This document shows, one piece after another, positions 2,534 through 38,373 of a stretch of DNA of 39,129 nt. Position 1 is the stretch's first letter. Every line of letters begins with the position of its first letter. The DNA is from a phage. Made by a program: the position numbers and the translations under genes. The stretch lies in sequence record PX309103.1. One strand, written 5' to 3'. Under the pieces are notes generated by a model. It was not told the origin of the DNA. It saw only the letters and a list, made by a program, of their open reading frames with translations, and did not search any database.

Positions 2534-5215
2534 ATGAGCGTCATCTCTATTGACAAACACGACTTCTCTGATGTGTCAAACGCCATTGAGCCGTTTAACC
2601 TGCTGGCTGACCACTACGGGCAAGACCTTGCAGTCAAACAGCTTCAGCTTGAGCATGAGGCATACACTGAAGGCGAGCGACGTTTCATCAAAAACCTTGA
2701 GCGACAGACTGAGCGCGGGGAACTGGCAGACAATCAGGTCGCCAAGCCTTTGATGCAGACTCTGGTCCCTAAGATTGCGCAAGCAGTCAAGGAGTGGCAC
2801 GAAGGTCCAGACGGGAAGCTGTCAACCTCTCGTCCTAGCGTAGCGTTCACCATGTTGAGCACTGAAGAGAAGGCCGTCAAGGACCGCTCTATGCGCATCT
2901 CCTGTGAGTCCGCTGCGGTTATCATACTGAAGGTAATACTCTCCAAGCTGGTCAAGCCCGAAGGGATACCGATTACACCTATGGCCTCCGCGATAGGTCG
3001 CACACTTGAGGACGAAATCCGCTTCGGTCGCATCCGTGACAAAGAGAAAGAGCACTTCAAGAAGGCGATAGCTGATAACCTGAATAAGCGTGCCGGGGCA
3101 TCCTACAAGAAAGCCTACATGCAAGCGGTAGAGGCATCCATGCTGGAGCAAGGCCAACTGGAAGATGCGTGGGGGACTTGGAGTCCTACAGAGGCTGTCC
3201 ACGTTGGCATTAAGATGCTCGAGATTGTCATCCAGTCAACACAACTTGTCGAGCTTAAGCGTTACGGTGCTGGCAATGCAGCGACTGACGTAGAGATGGT
3301 CCACCTGTCAGACTTCTGGGTCAAGAAGATGGCACAACGAGGATTCAGCCTTGCGGGTATCGCTCCTGTCTACCAGCCTTGCGTCGTTCCACCAAAGCCG
3401 TGGACTGGTGTCGTAGGCGGTGGGTATTGGGCCAAAGGTCGAAGACCATTGCCACTGATTCGCTTAGGGTCTAAGTCTGCGGTAGCACGTTACGAAGACG
3501 TGTACATGCCTGAAGTCTATGACGCTGTGAATATCATCCAGAATACACCTTGGAAAGTGAACAAGAAGGTATTGGACGTGGTGAACATGGTCGAGAAGCT
3601 GAACAACACGCCTATTGATGACATCCCTCAGATGGAGCCGCTGAAGCCTGAGGACTATGCTGGTGAGACCGAAGAAGAACTCAAGGCATGGAAGAAGGCT
3701 GCTGCTGGTATCTACCGCCGAGAGAAGGCCCGGCAGTCACGTAGATTGTCACTGAGCTTTATCGTTAACCAAGCGAACAAGTTCTCTCAGTTCAAGGCCA
3801 TCTGGTTTCCGTACAACATGGACTGGCGCGGTCGCGTCTACGCTGTGCCGATGTTCAACCCTCAAGGCAACGACATGCAGAAGGGTCTCCTGACTCTGGC
3901 AGTCGGCAAGCCTATTGGTGCTGACGGTTTCAAATGGCTGAAGGTCCACGGTGCAAACTGCGCGGGTGTCGATAAAGTCACCTTCGAGGAGCGCATCAAG
4001 TGGGTGGAAGACAACCACGAAAACATCATGGCTGCTGCTAAGGCACCGATGGATAGTATTGAGTGGTGGGGCAAGTTAGACTCTCCGTTCTGTTTCCTCG
4101 CGTTCTGCTTCGAGTATGCTGGCGTAATGCACCACGGCCTGTCTTACTCCTGCTCGCTGCCGATAGCGTTCGATGGGTCCTGCTCTGGTATTCAGCACTT
4201 CAGTGCGATGCTTCGTGACCACATCGGTGGACATGCAGTAAACCTGACGCCATCCGGTATGGTACAAGACATCTACCGCATTGTGTCTGACCGCATTGAG
4301 GAGGAGCTTAAAGTCCTGCTGATTAACGGTACTGACAACGAGATGGTCACTCACGAGGACAAGAAAACTGGTGAGATTACCGAACGTATCAAGCTGGGGA
4401 CACGAGAGCTGGCCCGTCAGTGGCTGACCTACGGGATGTCACGTAAGGTCACTAAGCGTTCAGTCATGACTCTGGCATACGGGTCGAAAGAGTACGGCTT
4501 CGCAGACCAAGTTTACGAGGACATCGTGATGCCAGCGATTGACTCAGGGTCTGGCGCTATGTTCACCGAGCCGAGCCAAGCGTCTCGCTTCATGGCTAAG
4601 ATGATTTGGGAAGCTGTGAGTGTGACTGTAGTTGCTGCGGTTGACGCGATGAAGTGGCTTCAAGGTGCTGCCAAGCTGCTGGCTGCTGAGGTGAAGGACA
4701 AGAAGACTGGAGAAATCCTGAAGCCTTGCCTTCCGGTACACTGGGTAACACCTGATGGTTTCCCGGTCTGGCAGGAATACCGCAAGAAGGATACCACTCG
4801 TCTGAACCTGATGTTCTTAGGGTCATTCAACCTTCAGCCTACCGTCAACAGAGGTACGAAGAAAGAGCTGGACAAACACAAGCAGGAGTCAGGAATTAGC
4901 CCGAACTTCGTCCACTCACAAGATGGTAGCCACCTCCGCAAGACTGTAGTCCACACGCACCGCAAGTATGGCGTGATGTCATTCGCAGTGATTCACGATA
5001 GCTTCGGGACCATCCCGGCTGACGCTGAGTATCTGTTCCGTGGCGTCCGTGAGACGATGGTCGAGACCTACCGCGACAACGATGTGCTGCTTGACTTCTA
5101 CGAGCAGTTTGAATACCAGCTTCATGAGAGCCAGCGCGACAAGTTACCTGAGCTACCGAAGAAAGGTAAACTGAATATCGAGGACATCTTGTCTTCAGAC
5201 TTTGCATTCGCTTAA
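2534..5215 (+). CDS. Single-subunit DNA-dependent RNA polymerase (T7 gp1 family)
   Basis: 893 aa; motifs DGSCSGIQHFSAM, HDSFGT and C-terminal ...DFAFA match T7 RNAP. Confidence 0.97.
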   Translation: MSVISIDKHDFSDVSNAIEPFNLLADHYGQDLAVKQLQLEHEAYTEGERRFIKNLERQTERGELADNQVAKPLMQTLVPKIAQAVKEWHEGPDGKLSTSRPSVAFTMLSTEEKAVKDRSMRISCESAAVIILKVILSKLVKPEGIPITPMASAIGRTLEDEIRFGRIRDKEKEHFKKAIADNLNKRAGASYKKAYMQAVEASMLEQGQLEDAWGTWSPTEAVHVGIKMLEIVIQSTQLVELKRYGAGNAATDVEMVHLSDFWVKKMAQRGFSLAGIAPVYQPCVVPPKPWTGVVGGGYWAKGRRPLPLIRLGSKSAVARYEDVYMPEVYDAVNIIQNTPWKVNKKVLDVVNMVEKLNNTPIDDIPQMEPLKPEDYAGETEEELKAWKKAAAGIYRREKARQSRRLSLSFIVNQANKFSQFKAIWFPYNMDWRGRVYAVPMFNPQGNDMQKGLLTLAVGKPIGADGFKWLKVHGANCAGVDKVTFEERIKWVEDNHENIMAAAKAPMDSIEWWGKLDSPFCFLAFCFEYAGVMHHGLSYSCSLPIAFDGSCSGIQHFSAMLRDHIGGHAVNLTPSGMVQDIYRIVSDRIEEELKVLLINGTDNEMVTHEDKKTGEITERIKLGTRELARQWLTYGMSRKVTKRSVMTLAYGSKEYGFADQVYEDIVMPAIDSGSGAMFTEPSQASRFMAKMIWEAVSVTVVAAVDAMKWLQGAAKLLAAEVKDKKTGEILKPCLPVHWVTPDGFPVWQEYRKKDTTRLNLMFLGSFNLQPTVNRGTKKELDKHKQESGISPNFVHSQDGSHLRKTVVHTHRKYGVMSFAVIHDSFGTIPADAEYLFRGVRETMVETYRDNDVLLDFYEQFEYQLHESQRDKLPELPKKGKLNIEDILSSDFAFA

Positions 5216-5516: not shown

Positions 5517-5541
5517 ACCCTAAACTATCACTATAGGATTA
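5517..5541 (+). promoter_or_regulatory. Phage RNAP promoter (phi1.1-like)
   Basis: TAAACTATCACTATAGGATT. Confidence 0.8.
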
Positions 5542-5546
5542 GACTC

Positions 5547-5573
5547 AAGGTCATGACTCAAAGTCGTGGCCTT
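5547..5573 (+). promoter_or_regulatory. Conserved hairpin, RNase III-site-like (R1.1 position)
   Basis: AAGGUCAUGAC / GUCGUGGCCUU 11-bp stem with G-U pairs and UCAAA loop; one of 3 copies of the same element. Confidence 0.6.
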
Positions 5574-5611
5574 CATGATTAACCCTAACTCATTCAATCA
5601 GGAGCTACACC

Positions 5612-7171: not shown

Positions 7172-7210
7172 AACCCAGTGGTCTTAGGACTGCTGGGTTT
7201 CTTTGCTTTG
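7172..7210 (+). terminator. Intrinsic terminator after ligase (T7 TE-like)
   Basis: Stem CCCAGUGGUC/GACUGCUGGG with UUAG loop followed by UUUCUUUGCUUUG. Confidence 0.65.
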
Positions 7211-7245: not shown

Positions 7246-7270
7246 CCCTAAGCTATCACTATAGGACAAC
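7246..7270 (+). promoter_or_regulatory. Phage RNAP promoter
   Basis: TAAGCTATCACTATAGGACA. Confidence 0.75.
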
Positions 7271-7955: not shown

Positions 7956-8033
7956 GTGGTGCCGGGAGATGTATGAGAAGACTCTCAACCCGGACTACAT
8001 CACGTTATACAACCAATGGAAGGAGCGCGGTTT

Positions 8034-8192
8034 ATGACTGACGTAGAGAAGAAGTACATCGTGGAGCTTGAGGGTCACATTCAGTCCTTCGAGGTTCCGG
8101 TGTACGCAAAGTCTCTTGAAGAGGCTACCCTGAAGTCCCAAGAGTATGAGGACGCTGGGTTTGTGGTCGGACGGATTCGTCCTGAGACCTAA
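8034..8192 (+). CDS. Gp2-like inhibitor of host RNA polymerase (52 aa)
   Basis: [17 protein letters not shown]...[10 protein letters not shown] matches recalled T7 Gp2. Confidence 0.8.
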
Positions 8193-8210
8193 ACTATCAC
8201 TGTAGGACAG
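8188..8210 (+). promoter_or_regulatory. Phage RNAP promoter variant (phi2.5-like)
   Basis: TAAACTATCACTGTAGGACA; one mismatch in the TATA core. Confidence 0.55.
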
Positions 8211-8250
8211 ACGTCCAGTTCGTAACTTTTAAATTAGGAGATTTACACCA

Positions 8251-8949
8251 ATGGCTAAAGAGCAACTGAAGACTTTCACCACTCCGGTAGCTGGTATCGT
8301 TGAGCCTTACGCATGGCTTAACAAAGCAGACACCAAGTTCAACGAGCGTGGTGAACACAAAGTCAACCTGACATTCGACCTGAGCAACCCGAAGGTCCGT
8401 AAGATGATTGATGTCTTACAGAAGATTCACGACGATGCGTATGCGAAAGCACTTGCAGACCACGAGAAGAACCCGCCTCAGGTTCAGCGTGGCAAGAAGC
8501 CTATTGAACCACGAGAAGGCGACATGCCGTGGATTGAGAATGGTGATGGTACTGTTACCCTGAAGTTTAAATGCTTCGCGTCTTACCTGAAGGATGGTAA
8601 GTCAGAGCCTATCATATTACGGTTCTACGACACCGATGCTAAGTTAATCCGTGACGTCCCGAATATTGGCGCTGGCTCAAAGCTGAAGGTCAAGTTTAAA
8701 GTCCTGCCGTTCAAGTGGAACGCTGCGACTGGTGCAAGCGTTAAGCTCCAGCTTGAGTCCTGCCTTCTGGTAGAACTGAAGGAGTGGAAAGGCGATGGTG
8801 CAGGTGGCGATGGTGGTTGGGGTGATGATGAAGACCTCGGTACCGGCTACAAAGCGTCAACCGATGGTGACTTCGGGTCTGATGACTTCGGTGACGATGG
8901 TTCCGAAGGTGGTTCCGAGTCCAACTCTGGTGGCGATTACGACTTCTAA
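8251..8949 (+). CDS. Single-stranded DNA-binding protein (gp2.5 family)
   Basis: 232 aa; conserved blocks GKKPIEPREGDMPW, SVKLQLES; acidic C-terminal tail ending DYDF. Confidence 0.93.
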   Translation: MAKEQLKTFTTPVAGIVEPYAWLNKADTKFNERGEHKVNLTFDLSNPKVRKMIDVLQKIHDDAYAKALADHEKNPPQVQRGKKPIEPREGDMPWIENGDGTVTLKFKCFASYLKDGKSEPIILRFYDTDAKLIRDVPNIGAGSKLKVKFKVLPFKWNAATGASVKLQLESCLLVELKEWKGDGAGGDGGWGDDEDLGTGYKASTDGDFGSDDFGDDGSEGGSESNSGGDYDF

Positions 8950-9401: not shown

Positions 9402-9871
9402 TGACTCAGAAATATAGACTTAAGGTTGACCGCCACGGGTGGCCTAAAGGTGCTATCGTTACGAAATGTGCGAAAGACCCTGTACCATCATCTGGACTTG
9501 TTCTGGTGGAATCCACTGAGCGTGGCACCTACAAACACGGAGCAGCAGGTCATAACACTCAGCCTGACGGTATGTGGGGGGCGTGGGTTTTAAAAGAAAA
9601 TCTTGAGGAAATTGTAGAGGATAAACCTCAAGTCCTGCCAGCCTCAAGTGTCCCTCCTGTCACCGTTAAACGTGAAGTCCTGACCATCGACAAGATTGGT
9701 GTAGGCCAGACGTTCATCGTCCACGGAAAGCCTGAAGAAGTTTACGTGAAGATTAGCAACTCACACGTCTTCAACCATAAGCGTCTCCAGATGCACACCA
9801 CGGACGCACAGCGCTTCACCCAGCACCTGAATCTAGTGGTCGTAGAATTGGTGGTGTACAATGGTAAGTAA
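9398..9871 (+). CDS. Hypothetical protein (157 aa) inserted between endonuclease I and lysozyme
   Basis: ORF overlaps both neighbours (ATGA at start); I recognise no motif. Confidence 0.55.
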   Translation: MMTQKYRLKVDRHGWPKGAIVTKCAKDPVPSSGLVLVESTERGTYKHGAAGHNTQPDGMWGAWVLKENLEEIVEDKPQVLPASSVPPVTVKREVLTIDKIGVGQTFIVHGKPEEVYVKISNSHVFNHKRLQMHTTDAQRFTQHLNLVVVELVVYNGK

Positions 9872-10319
9872 GGTACAGTTCAACCCACGGTCCCGGACTG
9901 ACGCTATCTTCGTTCACTGTTCGGCTACCAAGCCAGATATGGACATCGGGGTAGAGACCATCCGTATGTGGCACAAGCAGCAAGGCTGGCTGGACGTAGG
10001 CTACCACTTTATCATCAAACGTGATGGCACTGTGGAAGAGGGTCGCCCGGTCAATGTCGTAGGGTCACACGTTAAGGACTGGAACTCACGGTCTGTAGGC
10101 GTCTGCCTTGTAGGCGGAATCAACGCTAAGGGTCAGTTTGAAGCTAACTTCACTCCAGCCCAGATGAACTCCCTGCGCAACAAGCTGGCTGACCTGAAGG
10201 TCCTGTATCCTCAGGCAGAAATCAAAGCACACCATGACGTAGCACCTAAGGCGTGTCCAAGTTTCGACTTGCAACGCTGGCTGTCTACCAATGAACTGGT
10301 CACTTCCGACCGTGGTTAA
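9861..10319 (+). CDS. Lysozyme / N-acetylmuramoyl-L-alanine amidase (gp3.5 family)
   Basis: 152 aa; TDAIFVHCSATKP, GYHFIIKRDGTVEEGR, APKACPSFDL, ELVTSDRG match T7 lysozyme. Confidence 0.95.
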   Translation: MVSKVQFNPRSRTDAIFVHCSATKPDMDIGVETIRMWHKQQGWLDVGYHFIIKRDGTVEEGRPVNVVGSHVKDWNSRSVGVCLVGGINAKGQFEANFTPAQMNSLRNKLADLKVLYPQAEIKAHHDVAPKACPSFDLQRWLSTNELVTSDRG

Positions 10320-10343: not shown

Positions 10344-10559
10344 ATGATTAAACTTATTGAATTTCTTGGTCGTCTGGTGGTGCGTGGTTATCGTCGTGCT
10401 GCGGTACTGGAACGAAAGGTAGAAAAGAAGACTGCTGACAGTGCGGCTGATGCTGCTGCTCTGGCTGACAAGCTAACAATAGCGTCACTGGAAGCTGGCA
10501 TGAAGGCACGTCAAGCTGACACCAAAGCTGACCAGTTGGCTCAGTTCTTCAAAGCCTAA
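10344..10559 (+). CDS. Hypothetical Ala-rich protein (71 aa)
   Basis: ORF with strong RBS AAAGGAGA. Confidence 0.5.
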   Translation: MIKLIEFLGRLVVRGYRRAAVLERKVEKKTADSAADAAALADKLTIASLEAGMKARQADTKADQLAQFFKA

Positions 10560-10577
10560 ACTATCACCTTAGGGATG
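10555..10577 (+). promoter_or_regulatory. Phage RNAP promoter variant upstream of gene 4
   Basis: TAAACTATCACCTTAGGGAT; two mismatches to the consensus core. Confidence 0.45.
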
Positions 10578-10624
10578 GGACCATGAGTCCTGTCCCTTTG
10601 TCCGCATTATTGACTAAGGAGTGA

Positions 10625-12328
<1,704 letters not shown>

Positions 12329-12339
12329 GGAGGAGTACA

Positions 12340-12504
12340 TTGCTAAGAAAACTTAAAGCTCGCTACCATCGGTTCATGTACAAATGGTGGAGCGATGAAG
12401 CAACCTGCCTGTCAAGCATTATAGGAGAACAGAGGTTCGACTCTAAGGCATGGAAGAAAGCTAACCGGAAGTTTATGTATCACTTCTTGCGTACAGACTT
12501 CTAG
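12340..12504 (+). CDS. Hypothetical small basic protein (54 aa), TTG start
   Basis: AGGAGG 6 nt upstream of TTG at 12340; the ORF-track 12307 start lies inside gene 4. Confidence 0.4.
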
Positions 12505-12514
12505 GTCTAGACTC

Positions 12515-12539
12515 AAGGTCATTCACATCGAGTGGCCTT
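12515..12539 (+). promoter_or_regulatory. Conserved hairpin, RNase III-site-like (R4.7 position)
   Basis: AAGGUCAUUC / GAGUGGCCUU stem; same flanks (AGACTCAAGGTC ... TTTATGATTAGAC) as the 5547 and 35956 copies. Confidence 0.6.
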
Positions 12540-12567
12540 TATGATTAGACTAAACGGAGGATTAACC

Positions 12568-16468: not shown

Positions 16469-16595
16469 TATACTGGGCCGGACTTCTGGCCCTTTACTGC
16501 ATGTACAAGTGGTTCGGGTCGAACAACCGGCCTAAACACTGAGTCTAACCGATAGTCATATCCTATCAATCCAACAGTCATCCATAGGTGAAACA

Positions 16596-16618
16596 CTAAA
16601 CTATCACTATAGGGACTT
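16596..16618 (+). promoter_or_regulatory. Phage RNAP promoter (phi6.5-like)
   Basis: TAAACTATCACTATAGGGACT. Confidence 0.85.
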
Positions 16619-16678
16619 TAGGACCTAAGATATGACTATAAGATAGACTTTAGTCTTAACTTAAAGAGGAGATTCAAG

Positions 16679-17857: not shown

Positions 17858-19426
17858 ATGGCTGAACGTGAAGGGTTCGCTGCTGAAGGGGCCAAAGCGG
17901 TCTATGACCGACTGAAGAACGGTAGACAGCCATATGAGACACGCGCTCAGAACTGTGCTGCTGTCACTATCCCGTCACTGTTTCCTAAGGAGTCCGACAA
18001 CTCGTCTACTGAGTACACAACTCCGTGGCAAGCTGTAGGTGCTCGCTGTTTGAACAACTTGGCTGCAAAGCTGATGTTGGCATTATTCCCTCAGTCACCG
18101 TGGATGCGACTGACAGTCTCCGAATATGAGGCCAAGACCTTGAGTCAGGACTCAGAGGCTGCTGCTCGTGTTGACGAAGGGCTTGCTATGGTCGAGCGTG
18201 TGTTGATGGCCTACATGGAGACTAACAGTTTCCGTGTGCCATTGTTCGAAGCTCTGAAGCAGCTTATAGTCTCCGGTAACTGTCTGCTCTACATTCCAGA
18301 GCCTGAACAGGGTACTTACAGTCCTATGCGAATGTACCGCTTAGTGTCCTACGTTGTTCAACGTGATGCTTTCGGTAATATCTTGCAGATTGTGACTCTC
18401 GACAAGGTAGCGTTTAGTGCTCTACCGGAAGACGTGAAGTCTCAACTCAACGCAGACGACTATGAGCCTGACACAGAGCTGGAAGTATATACGCACATCT
18501 ACCGTCAAGACGACGAGTATCTGCGCTACGAGGAAGTGGAAGGCATTGAGGTGACAGGGACCGATGGTTCCTACCCGCTGACTGCATGTCCATATATCCC
18601 GGTACGAATGGTTCGACTGGATGGTGAAGACTATGGTCGTTCTTACTGCGAGGAGTATCTGGGAGACCTGAACTCGCTGGAGACGATTACAGAAGCTATC
18701 ACCAAAATGGCTAAGGTAGCCTCCAAGGTGATTGGCCTCGTTAACCCGAACGGCATCACGCAACCTCGACGTCTGAACAAGGCGGCTACAGGTGAGTTCG
18801 TGGCTGGTCGCGTTGATGACATCAGCTTCCTGCAACTGACGAAAGGTCAGGACTTTACGATTGCTAAGTCGGTGGCTGACGCTATCGAGCAACGTTTAGG
18901 TTGGGCCTTCCTTCTTAATAGTGCTGTTCAGCGTAATGCCGAGCGTGTCACTGCTGAAGAGATTCGTTATGTTGCTGGCGAACTGGAGGCGACCTTAGGT
19001 GGCGTGTACTCAGTACAGTCACAAGAGCTTCAGTTACCTATCGTCCGTGTGCTGATGAACCAGCTTCAGTCTGCTGGCATGATTCCTGACCTTCCGAAAG
19101 AAGCGGTAGAGCCTACTGTCTCCACTGGTCTGGAAGCGTTAGGTCGTGGTCAGGACTTGGAGAAGCTAACTCAGGCGGTTAACATGATGACTGGTCTTCA
19201 GCCGCTATCTCAGGACCCGGACATCAACTTGCCGACCCTTAAGCTACGACTCCTGAACGCTCTGGGTATCGACACCGCTGGCCTACTCCTGACGCAAGAC
19301 GAGAAGATTCAGCGCATGGCTGAGCAGTCGTCTCAACAGGCAGTTGTCCAAGGTGCTGGCGCTGCTGGTGCTAACATGGGCGCTGCTGTAGGTCAGGAAG
19401 CTGGTGAGGACATGGCTCAAGCCTAA
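17858..19426 (+). CDS. Head-to-tail connector (portal) protein (gp8 family)
   Basis: 522 aa; extensive T7 gp8 similarity (PYETRAQNCA, YRLVSYVVQRDAFGN, RMVRLDGEDYGRSY). Confidence 0.96.
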   Translation: MAEREGFAAEGAKAVYDRLKNGRQPYETRAQNCAAVTIPSLFPKESDNSSTEYTTPWQAVGARCLNNLAAKLMLALFPQSPWMRLTVSEYEAKTLSQDSEAAARVDEGLAMVERVLMAYMETNSFRVPLFEALKQLIVSGNCLLYIPEPEQGTYSPMRMYRLVSYVVQRDAFGNILQIVTLDKVAFSALPEDVKSQLNADDYEPDTELEVYTHIYRQDDEYLRYEEVEGIEVTGTDGSYPLTACPYIPVRMVRLDGEDYGRSYCEEYLGDLNSLETITEAITKMAKVASKVIGLVNPNGITQPRRLNKAATGEFVAGRVDDISFLQLTKGQDFTIAKSVADAIEQRLGWAFLLNSAVQRNAERVTAEEIRYVAGELEATLGGVYSVQSQELQLPIVRVLMNQLQSAGMIPDLPKEAVEPTVSTGLEALGRGQDLEKLTQAVNMMTGLQPLSQDPDINLPTLKLRLLNALGIDTAGLLLTQDEKIQRMAEQSSQQAVVQGAGAAGANMGAAVGQEAGEDMAQA

Positions 19427-19445
19427 ACTATCACTATAGGAACAA
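19423..19445 (+). promoter_or_regulatory. Phage RNAP promoter (phi9-like)
   Basis: TAAACTATCACTATAGGAACA. Confidence 0.85.
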
Positions 19446-20408: not shown

Positions 20409-20410
20409 GA

Positions 20411-20433
20411 CTAAACTATCACTATAGGGAGAC
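20411..20433 (+). promoter_or_regulatory. Phage RNAP promoter (phi10-like)
   Basis: TAAACTATCACTATAGGGAGACC, followed by a GGGAGACC...GGUUCCC 5' stem-loop. Confidence 0.9.
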
Positions 20434-21711: not shown

Positions 21712-21750
21712 AAACCCCTTGGGTGCCTTCGGGTGCTTGAGGGGTTTTTG
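21712..21750 (+). terminator. Intrinsic terminator after capsid gene (T-phi-like)
   Basis: GC-rich hairpin CCCCUUGGGUGCC-UUCG-GGUGCUUGAGGGG followed by UUUUU. Confidence 0.85.
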
Positions 21751-24790: not shown

Positions 24791-24824
24791 CTTATTGAAG
24801 GGCCTATAGATTTACCTTAACTAT

Positions 24825-24847
24825 CACTATAGGGACTATAGGCCCTT
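24825..24847 (+). promoter_or_regulatory. Phage RNAP promoter (phi13-like)
   Basis: TTAACTATCACTATAGGGACT, flanked by inverted repeat AGGGCCTATAG / CTATAGGCCCT. Confidence 0.85.
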
Positions 24848-24866
24848 AAGGTTATAAGGAGACTTT

Positions 24867-31200: not shown

Positions 31201-32095
31201 GTTCGATGACCGCTGGCTTAAGACCGCTGGTATCTCTGACGAGCAGTGGAAGGGCATTAAGTCCCTCATCCGTGAGTCAGTGACTCGTGGTCCAGACGGG
31301 AAGTACACCATCAAGGATAAGAAGGCGTTCAGTCAGGACCCAAGGGCTATGGACCTGTGGCGTATGGGTGACACCATCGCTGATGAAACGTTACTCCGTC
31401 CTCATAAGCTGTCCAACATGGACGCCAAGGCTTATGGTCCTATCGCTAAGACTGTCCTTCAGTTTAAGAACTTCGTCATCAAGTCCATCAATGGGCGAAC
31501 CATGCGTACCTTCTATAACGCCACGAAGAACAACCGAGCGATGGACGCTGCCCTGTCCACTGTGATGTCTATGGGTCTTGCTGGTATCTACTACATGGCT
31601 CAGGTTCATATCAAGGCTTACGCTATGCAGGATGGTCGAGACCGTGACTACCTCAAGCAAGCTCTAGACCCGACGATGATTGGATATGCAGCTCTATCAC
31701 GTAGTTCACACCTTGGTGGACCACTTGGGGTAGCTAACATTCTAGGTGGCATCGCTGGATATGAGGACACTAAGATGCTCCGTTCGTCTATCCTACCTCG
31801 TTCGCCCACAGAGAAGCCTGAACGTGCCATCGCGTATGGTGCAGCTACAAGTGACCCTGTGATGAATGTTGTTGGTAACTTCTTGGAGCAGGTTCCAGCT
31901 TTCGGATATGCTGCTAACGTTGGTGCTTCGGCTTATAACTTGGCTGGCTACCTGAAGGCCGACACTCGTGTCAACGAGCGTGACTACATAACCGGGATGT
32001 ATAACACCTTCCGTGAACTGGTACCGAACGACCCGATTACTCAGAAGTTGTTACTGGGAACGTTTGAGGAGCAAGGTATCCACATCAAGGACTAA
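28208..32095 (+). CDS. Internal virion (core) protein D (gp16 family) with divergent N-terminal domain
   Basis: About 1295 aa; from about residue 200 onward similar to T7 gp16 (GAGVDPLTYVP, RLEARETARN, PHVYS); start ATG 28208 with AAGGAG RBS. Confidence 0.9.
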   Translation: MATRGIRNNNPGNIRVSKDQWEGMTGDDGAFVTFDSPESGVRALGKNLLSYGRQGYDSIEKIINRWAPPNENETKAYIDSVVAATGIPATQSLDLSNPDTLSALAQAISFHETGSRYNPEVYQKGVARALNGISPKTPPVSANVFDALTEGLKAKPKVALGENLPTAAGLNIEGQAPEAPNESFGEMFYKSTGETMQEREDRSTWFGFGSATEAEVKNSMVGVAIRAGQTEDSLDVIGDVFNPTRWNNHKWSREELDQIRNAGVLPQYYGVITGGSPQNLTELINLALENQKLDQEKAKAGTGAQLAAGVIGAGVDPLTYVPIAGQIGKGGKLVNKMFTVAAQSGALAGVSEAARTSVAGGDAHVAEAILGGALFGGGMTAIADGLGRALGRNTNEFAGPATRLEARETARNVDGQDLSRLPIQEGEPTFSHQGVKFADVPNEPGSVRLEDGSILIGENPLNPKTRKVFDEVIEPERAAAGVNLGGLTEIGLKLLRSENPEIRGVAADLVRSPTGMQSGASGKIGTTASDVFERLRAVDHRFYNDIDDAVTEALKDPYFQTAFWRDSGAFRQDIYQRVSMAIEDGSGILKAELTPGELKVYDLLKNQFDAKREMMENPAMFGRPDAQSIFPGSRFKGTYVPHVYSKQMKELYTKELGSPEALQEAIKKSWLTSYASRPEVKKRVDEALLESDPTLTPEGLAAAVDKYANDKAYGISHTEQFERSSVMEENINGLVGLENNSFLEARNLFDSDMSIVLPNGQTFSVNNLREWDMDKIVPAYNRRVNGDIAIMAGTGKTTKDMKDLVETMMNKAGDDGKLKGEVSTLRDTLKILTGRSRRDGADDAAFATVMRTMTDLSFFAKNAYMGVQNLTEIGGMLARGNVRAMLHGVPIFRDLAFRNKKVGASEIKDLHNVIFGKELDDSIRPSKQDVIDRLRSYSDLGRGTATALGTAKYYTGELAVRSPFTKVLNGTTNYLLDAGRQGFLSDIVEHSLTGSKRKFDDRWLKTAGISDEQWKGIKSLIRESVTRGPDGKYTIKDKKAFSQDPRAMDLWRMGDTIADETLLRPHKLSNMDAKAYGPIAKTVLQFKNFVIKSINGRTMRTFYNATKNNRAMDAALSTVMSMGLAGIYYMAQVHIKAYAMQDGRDRDYLKQALDPTMIGYAALSRSSHLGGPLGVANILGGIAGYEDTKMLRSSILPRSPTEKPERAIAYGAATSDPVMNVVGNFLEQVPAFGYAANVGASAYNLAGYLKADTRVNERDYITGMYNTFRELVPNDPITQKLLLGTFEEQGIHIKD

Positions 32096-32114
32096 ACTAT
32101 CACTATAGGAAACT
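32092..32114 (+). promoter_or_regulatory. Phage RNAP promoter (phi17-like)
   Basis: TAAACTATCACTATAGGAAAC. Confidence 0.85.
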
Positions 32115-32159: not shown

Positions 32160-35100
32160 ATGTCCACGATTACACAATTCCCTTCAGGAAACACTCAGTA
32201 CAGGATTGAGTTCGACTACCTAGCCAGAACGTTTGTTGTTGTTACGCTGGTGAATAGCTCTAACCCTACCCTGAACCGTGTACTGGAAGTTGGTCGAGAT
32301 TACCGATTCCTTAATCCAACGATGATTGAGATGTTGGTTGACCAATCAGGTTTCGACATCGTTCGTATTCACCGTCAGACTGGAACTGACTTAGTGGTAG
32401 ACTTCAGGAATGGCTCAGTGTTGACAGCTAGTGACCTGACCAATTCAGAGCTTCAGGCTATCCATATTGCAGAAGAAGGTCGAGACCAAACGGTTGACTT
32501 AGCGAAGGAATATGCCGATGCTGCTAGTAGCTCTGCTGGCAACGCTAAGGATAGCGAGGACGAAGCACGACGAATCGCTGAGAGTATCAGGGAAGCTGGT
32601 CTAATTGGCTATATTACCCGTCGCTCCTTCGAGAAAGGCTACAACGTTACAACATGGAGCGAGGTCCTGCTATGGGAAGAGGATGGTGATTATTACCGCT
32701 GGGATGGTACGCTTCCAAAGAACGTTCCTGCTGGTTCAACTCCTGAAACTTCCGGTGGGATTGGATTAGGTGCGTGGGTTAGTGTTGGTGATGCTGCTTT
32801 AAGAAGTCAGATTTCAAACCCGGAAGGGGCAATACTCTACCCTGAATTACATAGAGCACGCTGGCTTGATGAAAAAGATGTCCGTGGTTGGGGTGCTAAA
32901 GGGGATGGTGTCACTGATGATACAGCAGCGTTAACGAGCGCATTAAACGACACACCGGTTGGACAAAGGCTTAATGGCAATGGGAAGACATATAAGGTCA
33001 CATCCCTGCCTGACATTAGTCGCTTCATCAACACTCGTTTCGTTTATGAGCGCATTCCCGGACAACCTCTTTATTATGTCTCTGAAGAATTTGTTCAGGG
33101 TGAGCTGTTCAAGATAACGGACACCCCTTATTACAATGCGTGGCCTCAGGATAAAGCGTTCGTATATGAGAATGTGATATATGCACCTTACATGGGTAGC
33201 GATCGTCATGGTGTTAGCCGTCTTCACGTATCATGGGTTAAGTCTGGTGATGATGGTCAAACATGGTCTACTCCAGAGTGGTTAACTGATCTGCATCCAG
33301 ATTACCCTACAGTGAACTATCATTGTATGAGTATGGGTGTATGTCGCAACCGTCTGTTTGCCATGATTGAAACACGTACTTTAGCCAAGAACGCATTAAC
33401 CAATTGTGCATTGTGGGATCGCCCCATGTCTCGTAGCCTGCATCTCACTGGTGGTATTACGAAGGCAGCAAATCAGCGATATGCAACAATCCATGTACCT
33501 GATCACGGGCTGTTCGTGGGTGACTTTGTTAACTTCTCTAACTCTGCGGTAACAGGTGTGTCAGGTGATATGAAGGTTGCAACGGTAATAGATAAGGACA
33601 GCTTCACGGTTCTTACACCTAACCAGCAGGACTCAGATTTGAATAACGCTGGAAAGAACTGGCATATGGGTACTTCATTCCATAAATCGCCATGGCGTAA
33701 GACAGATCTTGGCTTAATTCCTCGTGTGACTGAAGTTCATAGCTTTTCTGCTATTGATAACAATGGCTTTGTTATGGGTTATCACCAAGGTGATGTAGCT
33801 CCACGCGAAGTTGGACTATTCTACTTCCCTAACGCTTTCGATAATCCGGCTAACTATGTTCGTCGTCAGATACCTTCAGAGTATGAGCCAGATGCCTCAG
33901 AACCCTGCATCAAGTATTACGATGGTGTATTGTACCTCATCACCCGTGGCACTAGGAGCGATAGACTAGGTAGCTCTTTGCATCGTAGTAGAGACATAGG
34001 TCAGACTTGGGAGTCACTGAGATTTCCACATAATGTTCATCATACTACATTGCCTTTTGCTAAAGTAGGGGATGACCTTATTATGTTTGGTTCAGAACGT
34101 GCAGAAAATGAATGGGAAGCAGGTGCACCAGATGATCGTTACAAGGCATCTTATCCTCGCACCTTCTATGCACGCTTGAATGTAAACAATTGGAATGCAG
34201 ATGGTATTGAATGGGTTAACATCACTGACCAGATTTATCAGGGCGGAATAGTTAACTCAGGTGTAGGTGTTGGTTCGGTAGTTGTGAAGGATAGTTACAT
34301 CTACTACATGTTTGGTGGAGAGGACCATTTTAACCCATGGACATATGGAGATAACTCAGCGAGGGATCCATTCAAATCAGACGGTCATCCCTCAGATTTG
34401 TATTGCTACAAAATGAAGATTGGCCCAGACAATCGTGTTTCAAGGGATTTCAGGTATGGTGCTGTACCTAACAGAGCTGTTCCCGTGTTTTTTGATACGA
34501 ATGGGATTCGCACTGTTCCTGCGCCAATGGAATTTACAGGGGATTTGGGTTTAGGTCATGTGACCATTAGAGCCAGCACCAGTAGTAACATTCGCTCTGA
34601 AGTTTTAATGGAAGGTGAATATGGGTTTATCGGAAAATCTATACCGACTGATAACCCGGCAGGGCAGCGCATCATGTTTTGCGGGGGTGAAGGCACCAGT
34701 GCAACGACTGGCGCACAGATTACGCTTTATGGTGCAAATAACACCGACTCAAGGCGAATAGTTTACAACGGAGATGAGCATCTATTTCAGAGTGCTGATG
34801 TTAAGCCTTATAACGATAACGTCACTGCGCTTGGTGGGCCTAGAAACCGTTTCACCACTGCATACCTCGGAAGTAACCCTATTGTTACTTCTAACGGGGA
34901 GAGGAAAACAGAGCCGGTAGTTTTTGATGATGCTTTCCTTGATGCCTGGAGTGACGTTCACTACATCATGTACCAGTGGTTAGATGCTGTTCAACTGAAA
35001 GGCAATGATGCTCGTATTCACTTCGGGGTTATTGCTCAGCAAATTCGTGATGTATTCATTGCACATGGGCTGATGGACGAAAACAGTACGAATTGTCGTT

Positions 35101-35354
35101 ATGCTGTTCTGTGCTATGACAAGTATCCACGGATGACCGATACGGTATTTTCGCACAATGAAATCATTGAACACACTGACGAGGAGGGTAATGTCACCAC
35201 TACGGAAGAACCTGTATACACCGAGGTGGTTATTCACGAAGAGGGTGAGGAGTGGGGTGTTCGGCCTGACGGAATTTTCTTTGCTGAAGCCGCTTATCAG
35301 AGAAGAAAACTGGAAAGAATCGAAGCCAGACTTTCTGCTCTTGAACAGAAGTAA
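32160..35354 (+). CDS. Tailspike endosialidase (endo-N-acetylneuraminidase) with gp17-like N-terminal adaptor and C-terminal intramolecular chaperone domain
   Basis: 1064 aa; N-terminus FDYLARTFVVVTL resembles T7 gp17 N-domain; central region with GDGVTDDT; C-terminal domain typical of auto-cleaving chaperone domains; recalled resemblance to phage K1F endoNF. Confidence 0.9.
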   Translation: MSTITQFPSGNTQYRIEFDYLARTFVVVTLVNSSNPTLNRVLEVGRDYRFLNPTMIEMLVDQSGFDIVRIHRQTGTDLVVDFRNGSVLTASDLTNSELQAIHIAEEGRDQTVDLAKEYADAASSSAGNAKDSEDEARRIAESIREAGLIGYITRRSFEKGYNVTTWSEVLLWEEDGDYYRWDGTLPKNVPAGSTPETSGGIGLGAWVSVGDAALRSQISNPEGAILYPELHRARWLDEKDVRGWGAKGDGVTDDTAALTSALNDTPVGQRLNGNGKTYKVTSLPDISRFINTRFVYERIPGQPLYYVSEEFVQGELFKITDTPYYNAWPQDKAFVYENVIYAPYMGSDRHGVSRLHVSWVKSGDDGQTWSTPEWLTDLHPDYPTVNYHCMSMGVCRNRLFAMIETRTLAKNALTNCALWDRPMSRSLHLTGGITKAANQRYATIHVPDHGLFVGDFVNFSNSAVTGVSGDMKVATVIDKDSFTVLTPNQQDSDLNNAGKNWHMGTSFHKSPWRKTDLGLIPRVTEVHSFSAIDNNGFVMGYHQGDVAPREVGLFYFPNAFDNPANYVRRQIPSEYEPDASEPCIKYYDGVLYLITRGTRSDRLGSSLHRSRDIGQTWESLRFPHNVHHTTLPFAKVGDDLIMFGSERAENEWEAGAPDDRYKASYPRTFYARLNVNNWNADGIEWVNITDQIYQGGIVNSGVGVGSVVVKDSYIYYMFGGEDHFNPWTYGDNSARDPFKSDGHPSDLYCYKMKIGPDNRVSRDFRYGAVPNRAVPVFFDTNGIRTVPAPMEFTGDLGLGHVTIRASTSSNIRSEVLMEGEYGFIGKSIPTDNPAGQRIMFCGGEGTSATTGAQITLYGANNTDSRRIVYNGDEHLFQSADVKPYNDNVTALGGPRNRFTTAYLGSNPIVTSNGERKTEPVVFDDAFLDAWSDVHYIMYQWLDAVQLKGNDARIHFGVIAQQIRDVFIAHGLMDENSTNCRYAVLCYDKYPRMTDTVFSHNEIIEHTDEEGNVTTTEEPVYTEVVIHEEGEEWGVRPDGIFFAEAAYQRRKLERIEARLSALEQK

Positions 35355-38255: not shown

Positions 38256-38350
38256 CTGAATGAATAACTATAGGCGAAAACTGAATTAATAAGCAGTTAG
38301 TAACCTATAGTTACTACCAGTCTAACCTACTGTTTTATAAGGGGTTTGGA

Positions 38351-38373
38351 CTTAACTATCACTATAGGGAAGA
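38351..38373 (+). promoter_or_regulatory. Phage RNAP promoter near right end (phiOR-like)
   Basis: TTAACTATCACTATAGGGAAG. Confidence 0.85.

Follow-up and report, generated by a model that had tools for sequence, protein, structure and literature searches.

Two promoters of the T7-like coliphage genome analysed here, those preceding genes 2.5 and 4, carry substitutions in the element that is melted at initiation, and from comparison with relatives and by analogy with T7 we judge that both are likely to be functional class II promoters of the phage's own RNA polymerase, tuned down and serving DNA-metabolism genes. The feature is in itself ordinary and already known, being the class II arrangement of T7-like phages. 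The window, by which we mean the whole stretch of 39,129 nt that was analysed, is a complete genome of the genus Kayfunavirus (K1F-like); over the searched regions it is approximately 93–97% identical to its best-matching records (including K1F, Mt1B1_P3, BUCT788 and phiYIO1-1) and represents a distinct isolate.

The gene order of T7 is kept. Gene 1 (2534–5215, + strand) encodes a single-subunit RNA polymerase sharing 63% identity with T7 RNA polymerase (PF00940, PF14700). It is followed on the same strand by gene 2, encoding the host RNA polymerase inhibitor (8016–8192; PF16857, E 4.5e-20), gene 2.5, a member of the T7 single-stranded DNA-binding protein family (8251–8949; PF21265, E 2.5e-72), a gene 3.5 amidase/lysozyme homologue (9861–10319; PF01510), a gene 3.7-like open reading frame (ORF; 10344–10559) upstream of the gene 4 promoter, and gene 4, a T7-type primase/helicase recognized by its Pfam match (10628–12328). 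The Pfam matches confirm that the genes downstream of the two variant promoters are gp2.5 and gene 4, as the original prediction had named them. After the ligase gene, a TE-like early terminator (7172–7199, + strand), consisting of a 12-pair hairpin and a T run, occupies a place equivalent to that of the TE annotated in EcoDS1 and T7, and is the point beyond which only the phage polymerase reads the genome. An Rfam scan of the whole window returned no matches.

Two variant copies among eleven promoters

The window contains exactly 11 phage-RNA-polymerase promoters, compared with 17 in T7. The core CACTATAGG was found exactly nine times, always on the + strand (0.26 expected by chance), and a search with the 19-mer CTAAACTATCACTATAGGA allowing up to 3 mismatches recovered 11 sites against 0.00 expected from 100 shuffles. 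Using a scoring matrix built from only the nine consensus-core copies, these copies scored 33.4–37.7 bits, the gene 2.5 copy 29.2 bits and the gene 4 copy 24.7 bits; since the next-best score on either strand was 14.8 bits, the set comprises 11 copies and no more. The consensus core is carried by the promoter before gene 1 (2442–2464), phi1.1 (5519–5541), phi1.6 (7247–7269), the late promoters phi6.5 (16595–16617), phi9 (19422–19444), phi10 (20410–20432, with the start region GGGAGA as in T7), phi13 (24815–24837) and phi17 (32091–32113), and phiOR (38350–38372). We considered the 14.8-bit site (CCTAAGATATGACTATAAGATAG, 16624–16646) as a missed promoter and rejected it: relatives keep it, but it does not change with promoter specificity, and, lying 29 nt downstream of phi6.5, it is probably phi6.5 leader RNA. 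Exact-match repeat searches undercount promoters in Kayfunavirus-type phages; one recent Kayfunavirus paper gives only eight exact promoter copies (PMC13298934).

Numbered as in T7 (the first G that follows TATA is +1), the phi2.5 promoter (−17 to +6, CCTAAACTATCACTGTAGGACAG; 8188–8210, + strand) carries A-to-G at −3 (8202) ahead of a predicted start at G 8205, while the gene 4 promoter (−17 to +6, CCTAAACTATCACCTTAGGGATG; 10555–10577, + strand) carries T-to-C at −4 (10568) and A-to-T at −3 (10569), giving the core CACCTTAGG ahead of a predicted start at G 10572. These readings bear out the earlier claims that two copies have a substituted core and that the other nine share one; its description as normally invariant is right within this genome and fails genus-wide, where middle promoters vary at −3. 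In a T7 promoter, positions −17 to −5 form the element bound as duplex DNA and −4 to −1 the element that is melted. Both variant copies match the consensus CCTAAACTATCAC at all 13 positions of the binding half (−17 to −5), and −2 to +2 are likewise intact in both.

The two copies are intergenic, co-oriented with the genes (+ strand) and located downstream of the TE-like terminator and ahead of DNA-metabolism genes. Their predicted starts are GGA (gene 2.5) and GGG (gene 4), and the leaders that would follow measure 46 nt and 56 nt, respectively, each with AGGAG and then ATG. The TAA stop of gene 2 (8190–8192) coincides with positions −15 to −13 of the phi2.5 promoter, as does that of the gene 3.7-like ORF (10557–10559) with the same positions of the gene 4 promoter. 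We rejected a coding constraint as the reason for the variant bases, the overlap being confined to these upstream stop codons and −4 and −3 lying outside both flanking genes.

Both sites are syntenic with T7 promoters of the same 23-bp, two-domain type: phi2.5 of T7 (NC_001604; Dunn & Studier 1983 map) also lies between genes 2 and 2.5, directly behind the former, and phi3.8 sits, like the gene 4 copy, after gene 3.5 and upstream of gene 4. Class II promoters of T7 deviate within −5 to −1 and its six late promoters are identical; the late copies of the window are also consensus. The deviations themselves differ. T7 phi2.5 reads CACTATT/A, with T at −1 and an A start, whereas its counterpart here has G at −3, keeps the binding half perfect and starts with G; T7 phi3.8 reads CACTAAA (A at −2) and has three changes in its binding half, whereas the gene 4 copy has C at −4 and T at −3 and likewise starts with G behind a perfect binding half.

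Closer to the window, EcoDS1 (EU734172) has annotated promoters ahead of gene 2.5 ('promoter phi2.5') and of gene 4 whose 23-mers are identical to the window's, both being predictions and not mapped starts. CR44b (HG818823) has the same 11 sites annotated as predicted promoters, again not mapped starts; its gene 2.5 23-mer, labelled 'predicted promoter', matches the window's at every position, and the gene 4 copy of CR44b has the same CACCTTAGG core and differs at two positions, −17 and +6. In a Citrobacter phage CR8-like contig (L025 3880) of a sister genus, with the promoter TAAGGAAGGTACACTATAGG, both phi2.5 and the promoter of the gene 4 region are consensus, and it is the site preceding phi2.5 (equivalent to phi1.6 by order only) that carries G at −3. 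The two phages would on this reading share a tuning position at different promoters, which means that the identity of the weakened promoter is not universal.

The promoter at 2442–2464 lies directly 5′ of the polymerase gene, at a place where T7 has no promoter and where CR44b annotates the same site. Its position implies positive autoregulation.

Conservation of the cores among relatives

Homologous regions were taken from Kayfunavirus contigs in IMG/VR and promoters were assigned to orthologous sites by their flanks; the counts that follow are over distinct 260-nt contexts, which, because close relatives share descent, amount to approximately 3 clearly independent sequence types per site. 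At phi2.5, positions −4 to −1 read TGTA in 18 and TTTA in 7 of 25 contexts, with no TATA; at the gene 4 promoter (23 contexts) they read CTTA in 18, TAAA in 3, CTAA in 1 and TTAA in 1, again with no TATA. By comparison, TATA is found in 24/24 orthologues of phi1.1 and in 112/112 of the late promoters (phi6.5, 9, 10, 13, 17 and OR). Both variant sites recur at equivalent positions in each of the relatives examined, including those whose flanks are as little as 75–78% identical to the window. The non-consensus state is thus class-specific, and neither site reads TATA in any of these relatives.

GenBank phages, among which approximately 260–340 related genomes were identified, agree. The phi2.5 context is present in 170 phage records, 20 of which contain the native 65-mer exactly; a version with A at −3 was found in none of the 170 at ≥99% identity. 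The gene 4 context is present in 177 records, with 34 exact matches, and the query with TATA restored reached a best identity of 96.7% among them.

A third middle promoter adds to the pattern. Relatives have a full promoter before gene 5 (for example CTAAGCTATCACTGTAGGATAGAC) whose −4 to −1 read TGTA in 9 and TTTA in 2 contexts, with no TATA, so that genus-wide the middle promoters vary at −3 or −4 and are never consensus at genes 2.5, 4 and 5. In the window, approximately 11 nt of the core have been deleted from this promoter, leaving GACTTCTAGGTCTAGAC (12496–12512, + strand) in place of the relatives' GACTACTAAGCTATCACTGTAGGATAGAC; the deletion is common to the window, K1F and several close relatives, and the downstream hairpin is retained. 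The window scan gave no promoter-like matrix score at 12496–12512, which we read as the true promoter relic of this genome.

This remnant bears on the suggestion in the original prediction that the two variant copies might themselves be non-functional relics, that is, former promoters decaying by mutation. They are indeed the two lowest-scoring of the 11, and the remnant before gene 5 makes plain that promoter loss occurs in this lineage. Decay, however, should strike all 23 positions, and yet 21–22 of 23 are kept and the odd base is confined to a single spot; no relative examined has lost the sites, although the flanks have diverged; the relic before gene 5 looks different, its core being deleted; and a conserved hairpin begins exactly at the +1 of gene 4. 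With the 13-position binding half intact as well, the suggestion does not hold up, and we give it almost no weight.

A sub-clade of relatives also bears on the binding half. In six IMG/VR contigs (L018, L020, L024, L051, L102 and L103), AAACCCTCAC, which is T3-like at −11 to −9, replaces AAACTATCAC at all promoters, a switch of promoter specificity inside an otherwise closely related group. At the variant sites the upstream half changes along with the genome's other promoters, which is not expected of decaying relics. The core differences between class II and class III promoters survive the switch, and phi2.5 keeps its G at −3 in that clade.

More serious is the possibility that the two promoters are of essentially normal strength, the K1F-type polymerase being indifferent at −3 and −4 and neutral variation having been fixed by descent. 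Some relatives fit this: phi1.6, which has the consensus core in the window, reads TGTA in 4/24 distinct relatives, and phi1.6 and the gene 1 promoter both vary among relatives between TATA and TGTA or TAAA, with no obvious consequence. But TATA in every one of the late and phi1.1 orthologues indicates a polymerase that selects TATA where output matters, and phi2.5, phi4 and phi5 shift among non-consensus bases (G or T at −3; CTTA, TAAA, CTAA or TTAA) without arriving at TATA. Data from T7, taken up in the next section, add to both sides; on balance we regard normal strength as unlikely.

The same pattern also admits a reading that goes further than ours, in which the base at −3 (and −4) is a selected, site-specific setting, TATA being excluded at genes 2.5, 4 and 5 for the sake of differential regulation and not mere weakness. 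We hold this to be rather doubtful, although, if true, it would make of one or two base pairs a timing switch, for example as the sole targets of lysozyme–polymerase shut-off or through a response to GTP or supercoiling. With the variant promoters one could readily test whether selection acts on weakness as such at replication genes.

Expected strength of the variant promoters by analogy with T7

The consensus of the window is identical to that of T7 at −8 to +2, which makes T7 data a reasonable proxy for the effect of changes at −4 and −3. Reviews of T7 describe changes at −4 to −1 as acting on initiation to a greater extent than on binding, and class II promoters as the weaker ones (PMC11617373). 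Among the graded T7 variants of Komura et al. 2018 (PMC5937735), the S2 File includes the exact CACCTTAGG core, and substitutions at −3 and −4 lower activity; these are synthetic variants assayed with T7 polymerase in vitro, with bases at −12 to −9 that differ from the window's. Because each value in that barcoded screen comes from one template, the following figures are rough guides only. Against a wild-type range of 141–188, the CACCTTAGG core in T7 context (TAATACGACTCACCTTAGG) gave 3.63, approximately 2% of wild type. Changes at single positions of interest were available as double mutants, which we compared with matched single-mutant controls: T at −3 with the neutral −13T gave 29 against 192 for −13T alone (approximately 15%), C at −4 with −13T gave 10.9 (approximately 6%), and G at −3 with −10T gave 3.9 against 31 for −10T alone (approximately 13%).

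These values speak to both sides of the question whether the promoters are of normal strength. The core identical to that of the gene 4 copy falls to approximately 2% of wild type, which argues against it. On the other hand, A at −2, the commonest natural class II change in T7, retains approximately 80–95% activity in the same screen (PMC5937735), so that a class II promoter need not be much weaker in vitro, and a natural variant that is nearly wild type fits normal strength. Papers on T7-like promoter specificity (NAR 2025) and on PRSeq cover −12 to −7 only and contain nothing on −4 or −3.

The polymerase itself adds a caution. Gene 1 encodes Ala at the position aligned with T7 Val237 in the intercalating hairpin (residues ~240–252). 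We take Val237 to be the residue of T7 polymerase that intercalates at the −5/−4 melting boundary, and its replacement means that tolerance at −4 and −3 could differ from that of T7, a point in favour of normal strength. In the specificity loop (residues ~756–770), Asn replaces T7 Arg756 and Ser replaces T7 Gln754, changes that, as we read the published T7 work, presumably fit the window's different promoter bases at −12 to −9.

Returning to tuned-down class II promoters as the preferred reading, the mechanism may be pictured as follows. With −17 to −5 perfect and bound as duplex DNA, recognition by the polymerase would be normal. What is altered is the stretch of four base pairs to be melted (−4 to −1, normally TATA), where each change would either add a G:C pair or alter template bases held in the open complex, so that open-complex formation may be slowed or destabilized and the frequency of initiation lowered. 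By analogy with T7, the reduction would bring the gene 2.5 copy to about a tenth and the gene 4 copy to a few per cent. Of the original suggestion that these are deliberately weak promoters for DNA-metabolism genes, the class-specific non-TATA state and the T7 activities of approximately 2–15% thus support the main part, with strength itself carried over from T7.

Genes 2.5 and 4 would in addition be reached by read-through transcription starting at phi1.1 and phi1.6, since we detected no terminator for the phage polymerase in the window upstream of gene 10, 3′ of which a Tphi-like hairpin lies at 21726–21743. Given this supply, the weak promoters would add a modest increment. The lysozyme of T7 (gene 3.5), which binds the phage polymerase, drives the switch from class II to class III promoters (PMC6938266). 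The window encodes a gene 3.5 homologue, so it is plausible that the two weak promoters are preferentially shut off late in infection: by the same analogy, lysozyme binding at that stage would silence both first.

For practical purposes the two sites should be annotated as middle promoters, and they have little importance beyond correct annotation. Users of K1F-specificity polymerases in synthetic circuits may find in them and their orthologues a natural series of graded K1F-type promoters.

Leader hairpins and other conserved elements

Transcripts of T7-type phages typically start with structure anchored at +1, T7 phi10 RNA being an example. The predicted gene 4 transcript conforms: a 10-pair hairpin, GGGAUGGGAC-CAUGA-GUCCUGUCCC (10572–10596, + strand), begins at the predicted +1, with a folding energy of −16.6 kcal/mol over the first 32 nt and z = −3.0 over the 45-nt leader. 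A hairpin from +1 is present in 24/24 distinct gene 4 orthologues (−13.7 to −17.1 kcal/mol). Among them, one type changes a G:C pair to A:U and in another the inner stem is replaced (GGGAUGACC...GGUUGUCCC), changes that appear to be compensatory, with relatives maintaining the structure; we judged this by folding each sequence, because the MAFFT alignment of these hairpins is not structure-aware and misaligns the third stem type. That the hairpin starts exactly at the predicted +1 provides a second line of support for promoter function. At the predicted 5′ end of the gene 2.5 transcript, a small 4-pair hairpin, GGAC-AGAC-GUCC (8205–8216, + strand), is found in the K1F-type clade only.

Such structures raise a further alternative, in which the two sites are conserved mainly for a role of the read-through RNA or of the DNA (a processing or stability hairpin, or replication priming) and their likeness to promoters is secondary. 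The gene 4 site does adjoin a strongly conserved hairpin, other promoters of the window sit in conserved inverted repeats or in hairpins like processing sites, and some T7 promoters double as replication origins. Positions −17 to −1, however, lie outside the hairpin, which leaves conservation of the promoter itself unaccounted for; at the gene 2.5 site, conserved structure is confined to one clade; and in the AAACCCTCAC clade the upstream half follows the clade's other promoters, as expected only if a polymerase reads it. We consider this alternative highly improbable and retain weak promoter function as the likely explanation for both sites.

Several other elements were noted along the genome. 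Similar conserved hairpin leaders (AGACTCAAGGTCAT...TGGCCTT.ATGATT) occur at 5541–5580, after phi1.1, and at 12508–12552, after the deleted gene 5 promoter, and the gene 1 promoter is followed by a related GACTCAAGGTC start. The phi1.1 leader folds at −16.3 kcal/mol (z = −3.6), and the phi1.1 and gene 5 leaders resemble T7 RNase III processing sites. The phi13 promoter lies between the arms of a 10-bp inverted repeat (GGGCCTATAG ... CTATAGGCCC) at 24799–24847; the stretch 24791–24860 folds at −22.9 kcal/mol, and read-through RNA would place the phi13 sequence into a hairpin. A 9-bp core of this repeat (GGCCTATAG ... CTATAGGCC) is kept in all relatives examined, including the clade of different specificity, and the repeat may be a processing site. 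Lastly, gene 17 (32160–35354) encodes a 1064-amino-acid tail spike, and matches to its locus include annotated endo-N-acetylneuraminidase, as in K1F, which suggests K1 capsule specificity.
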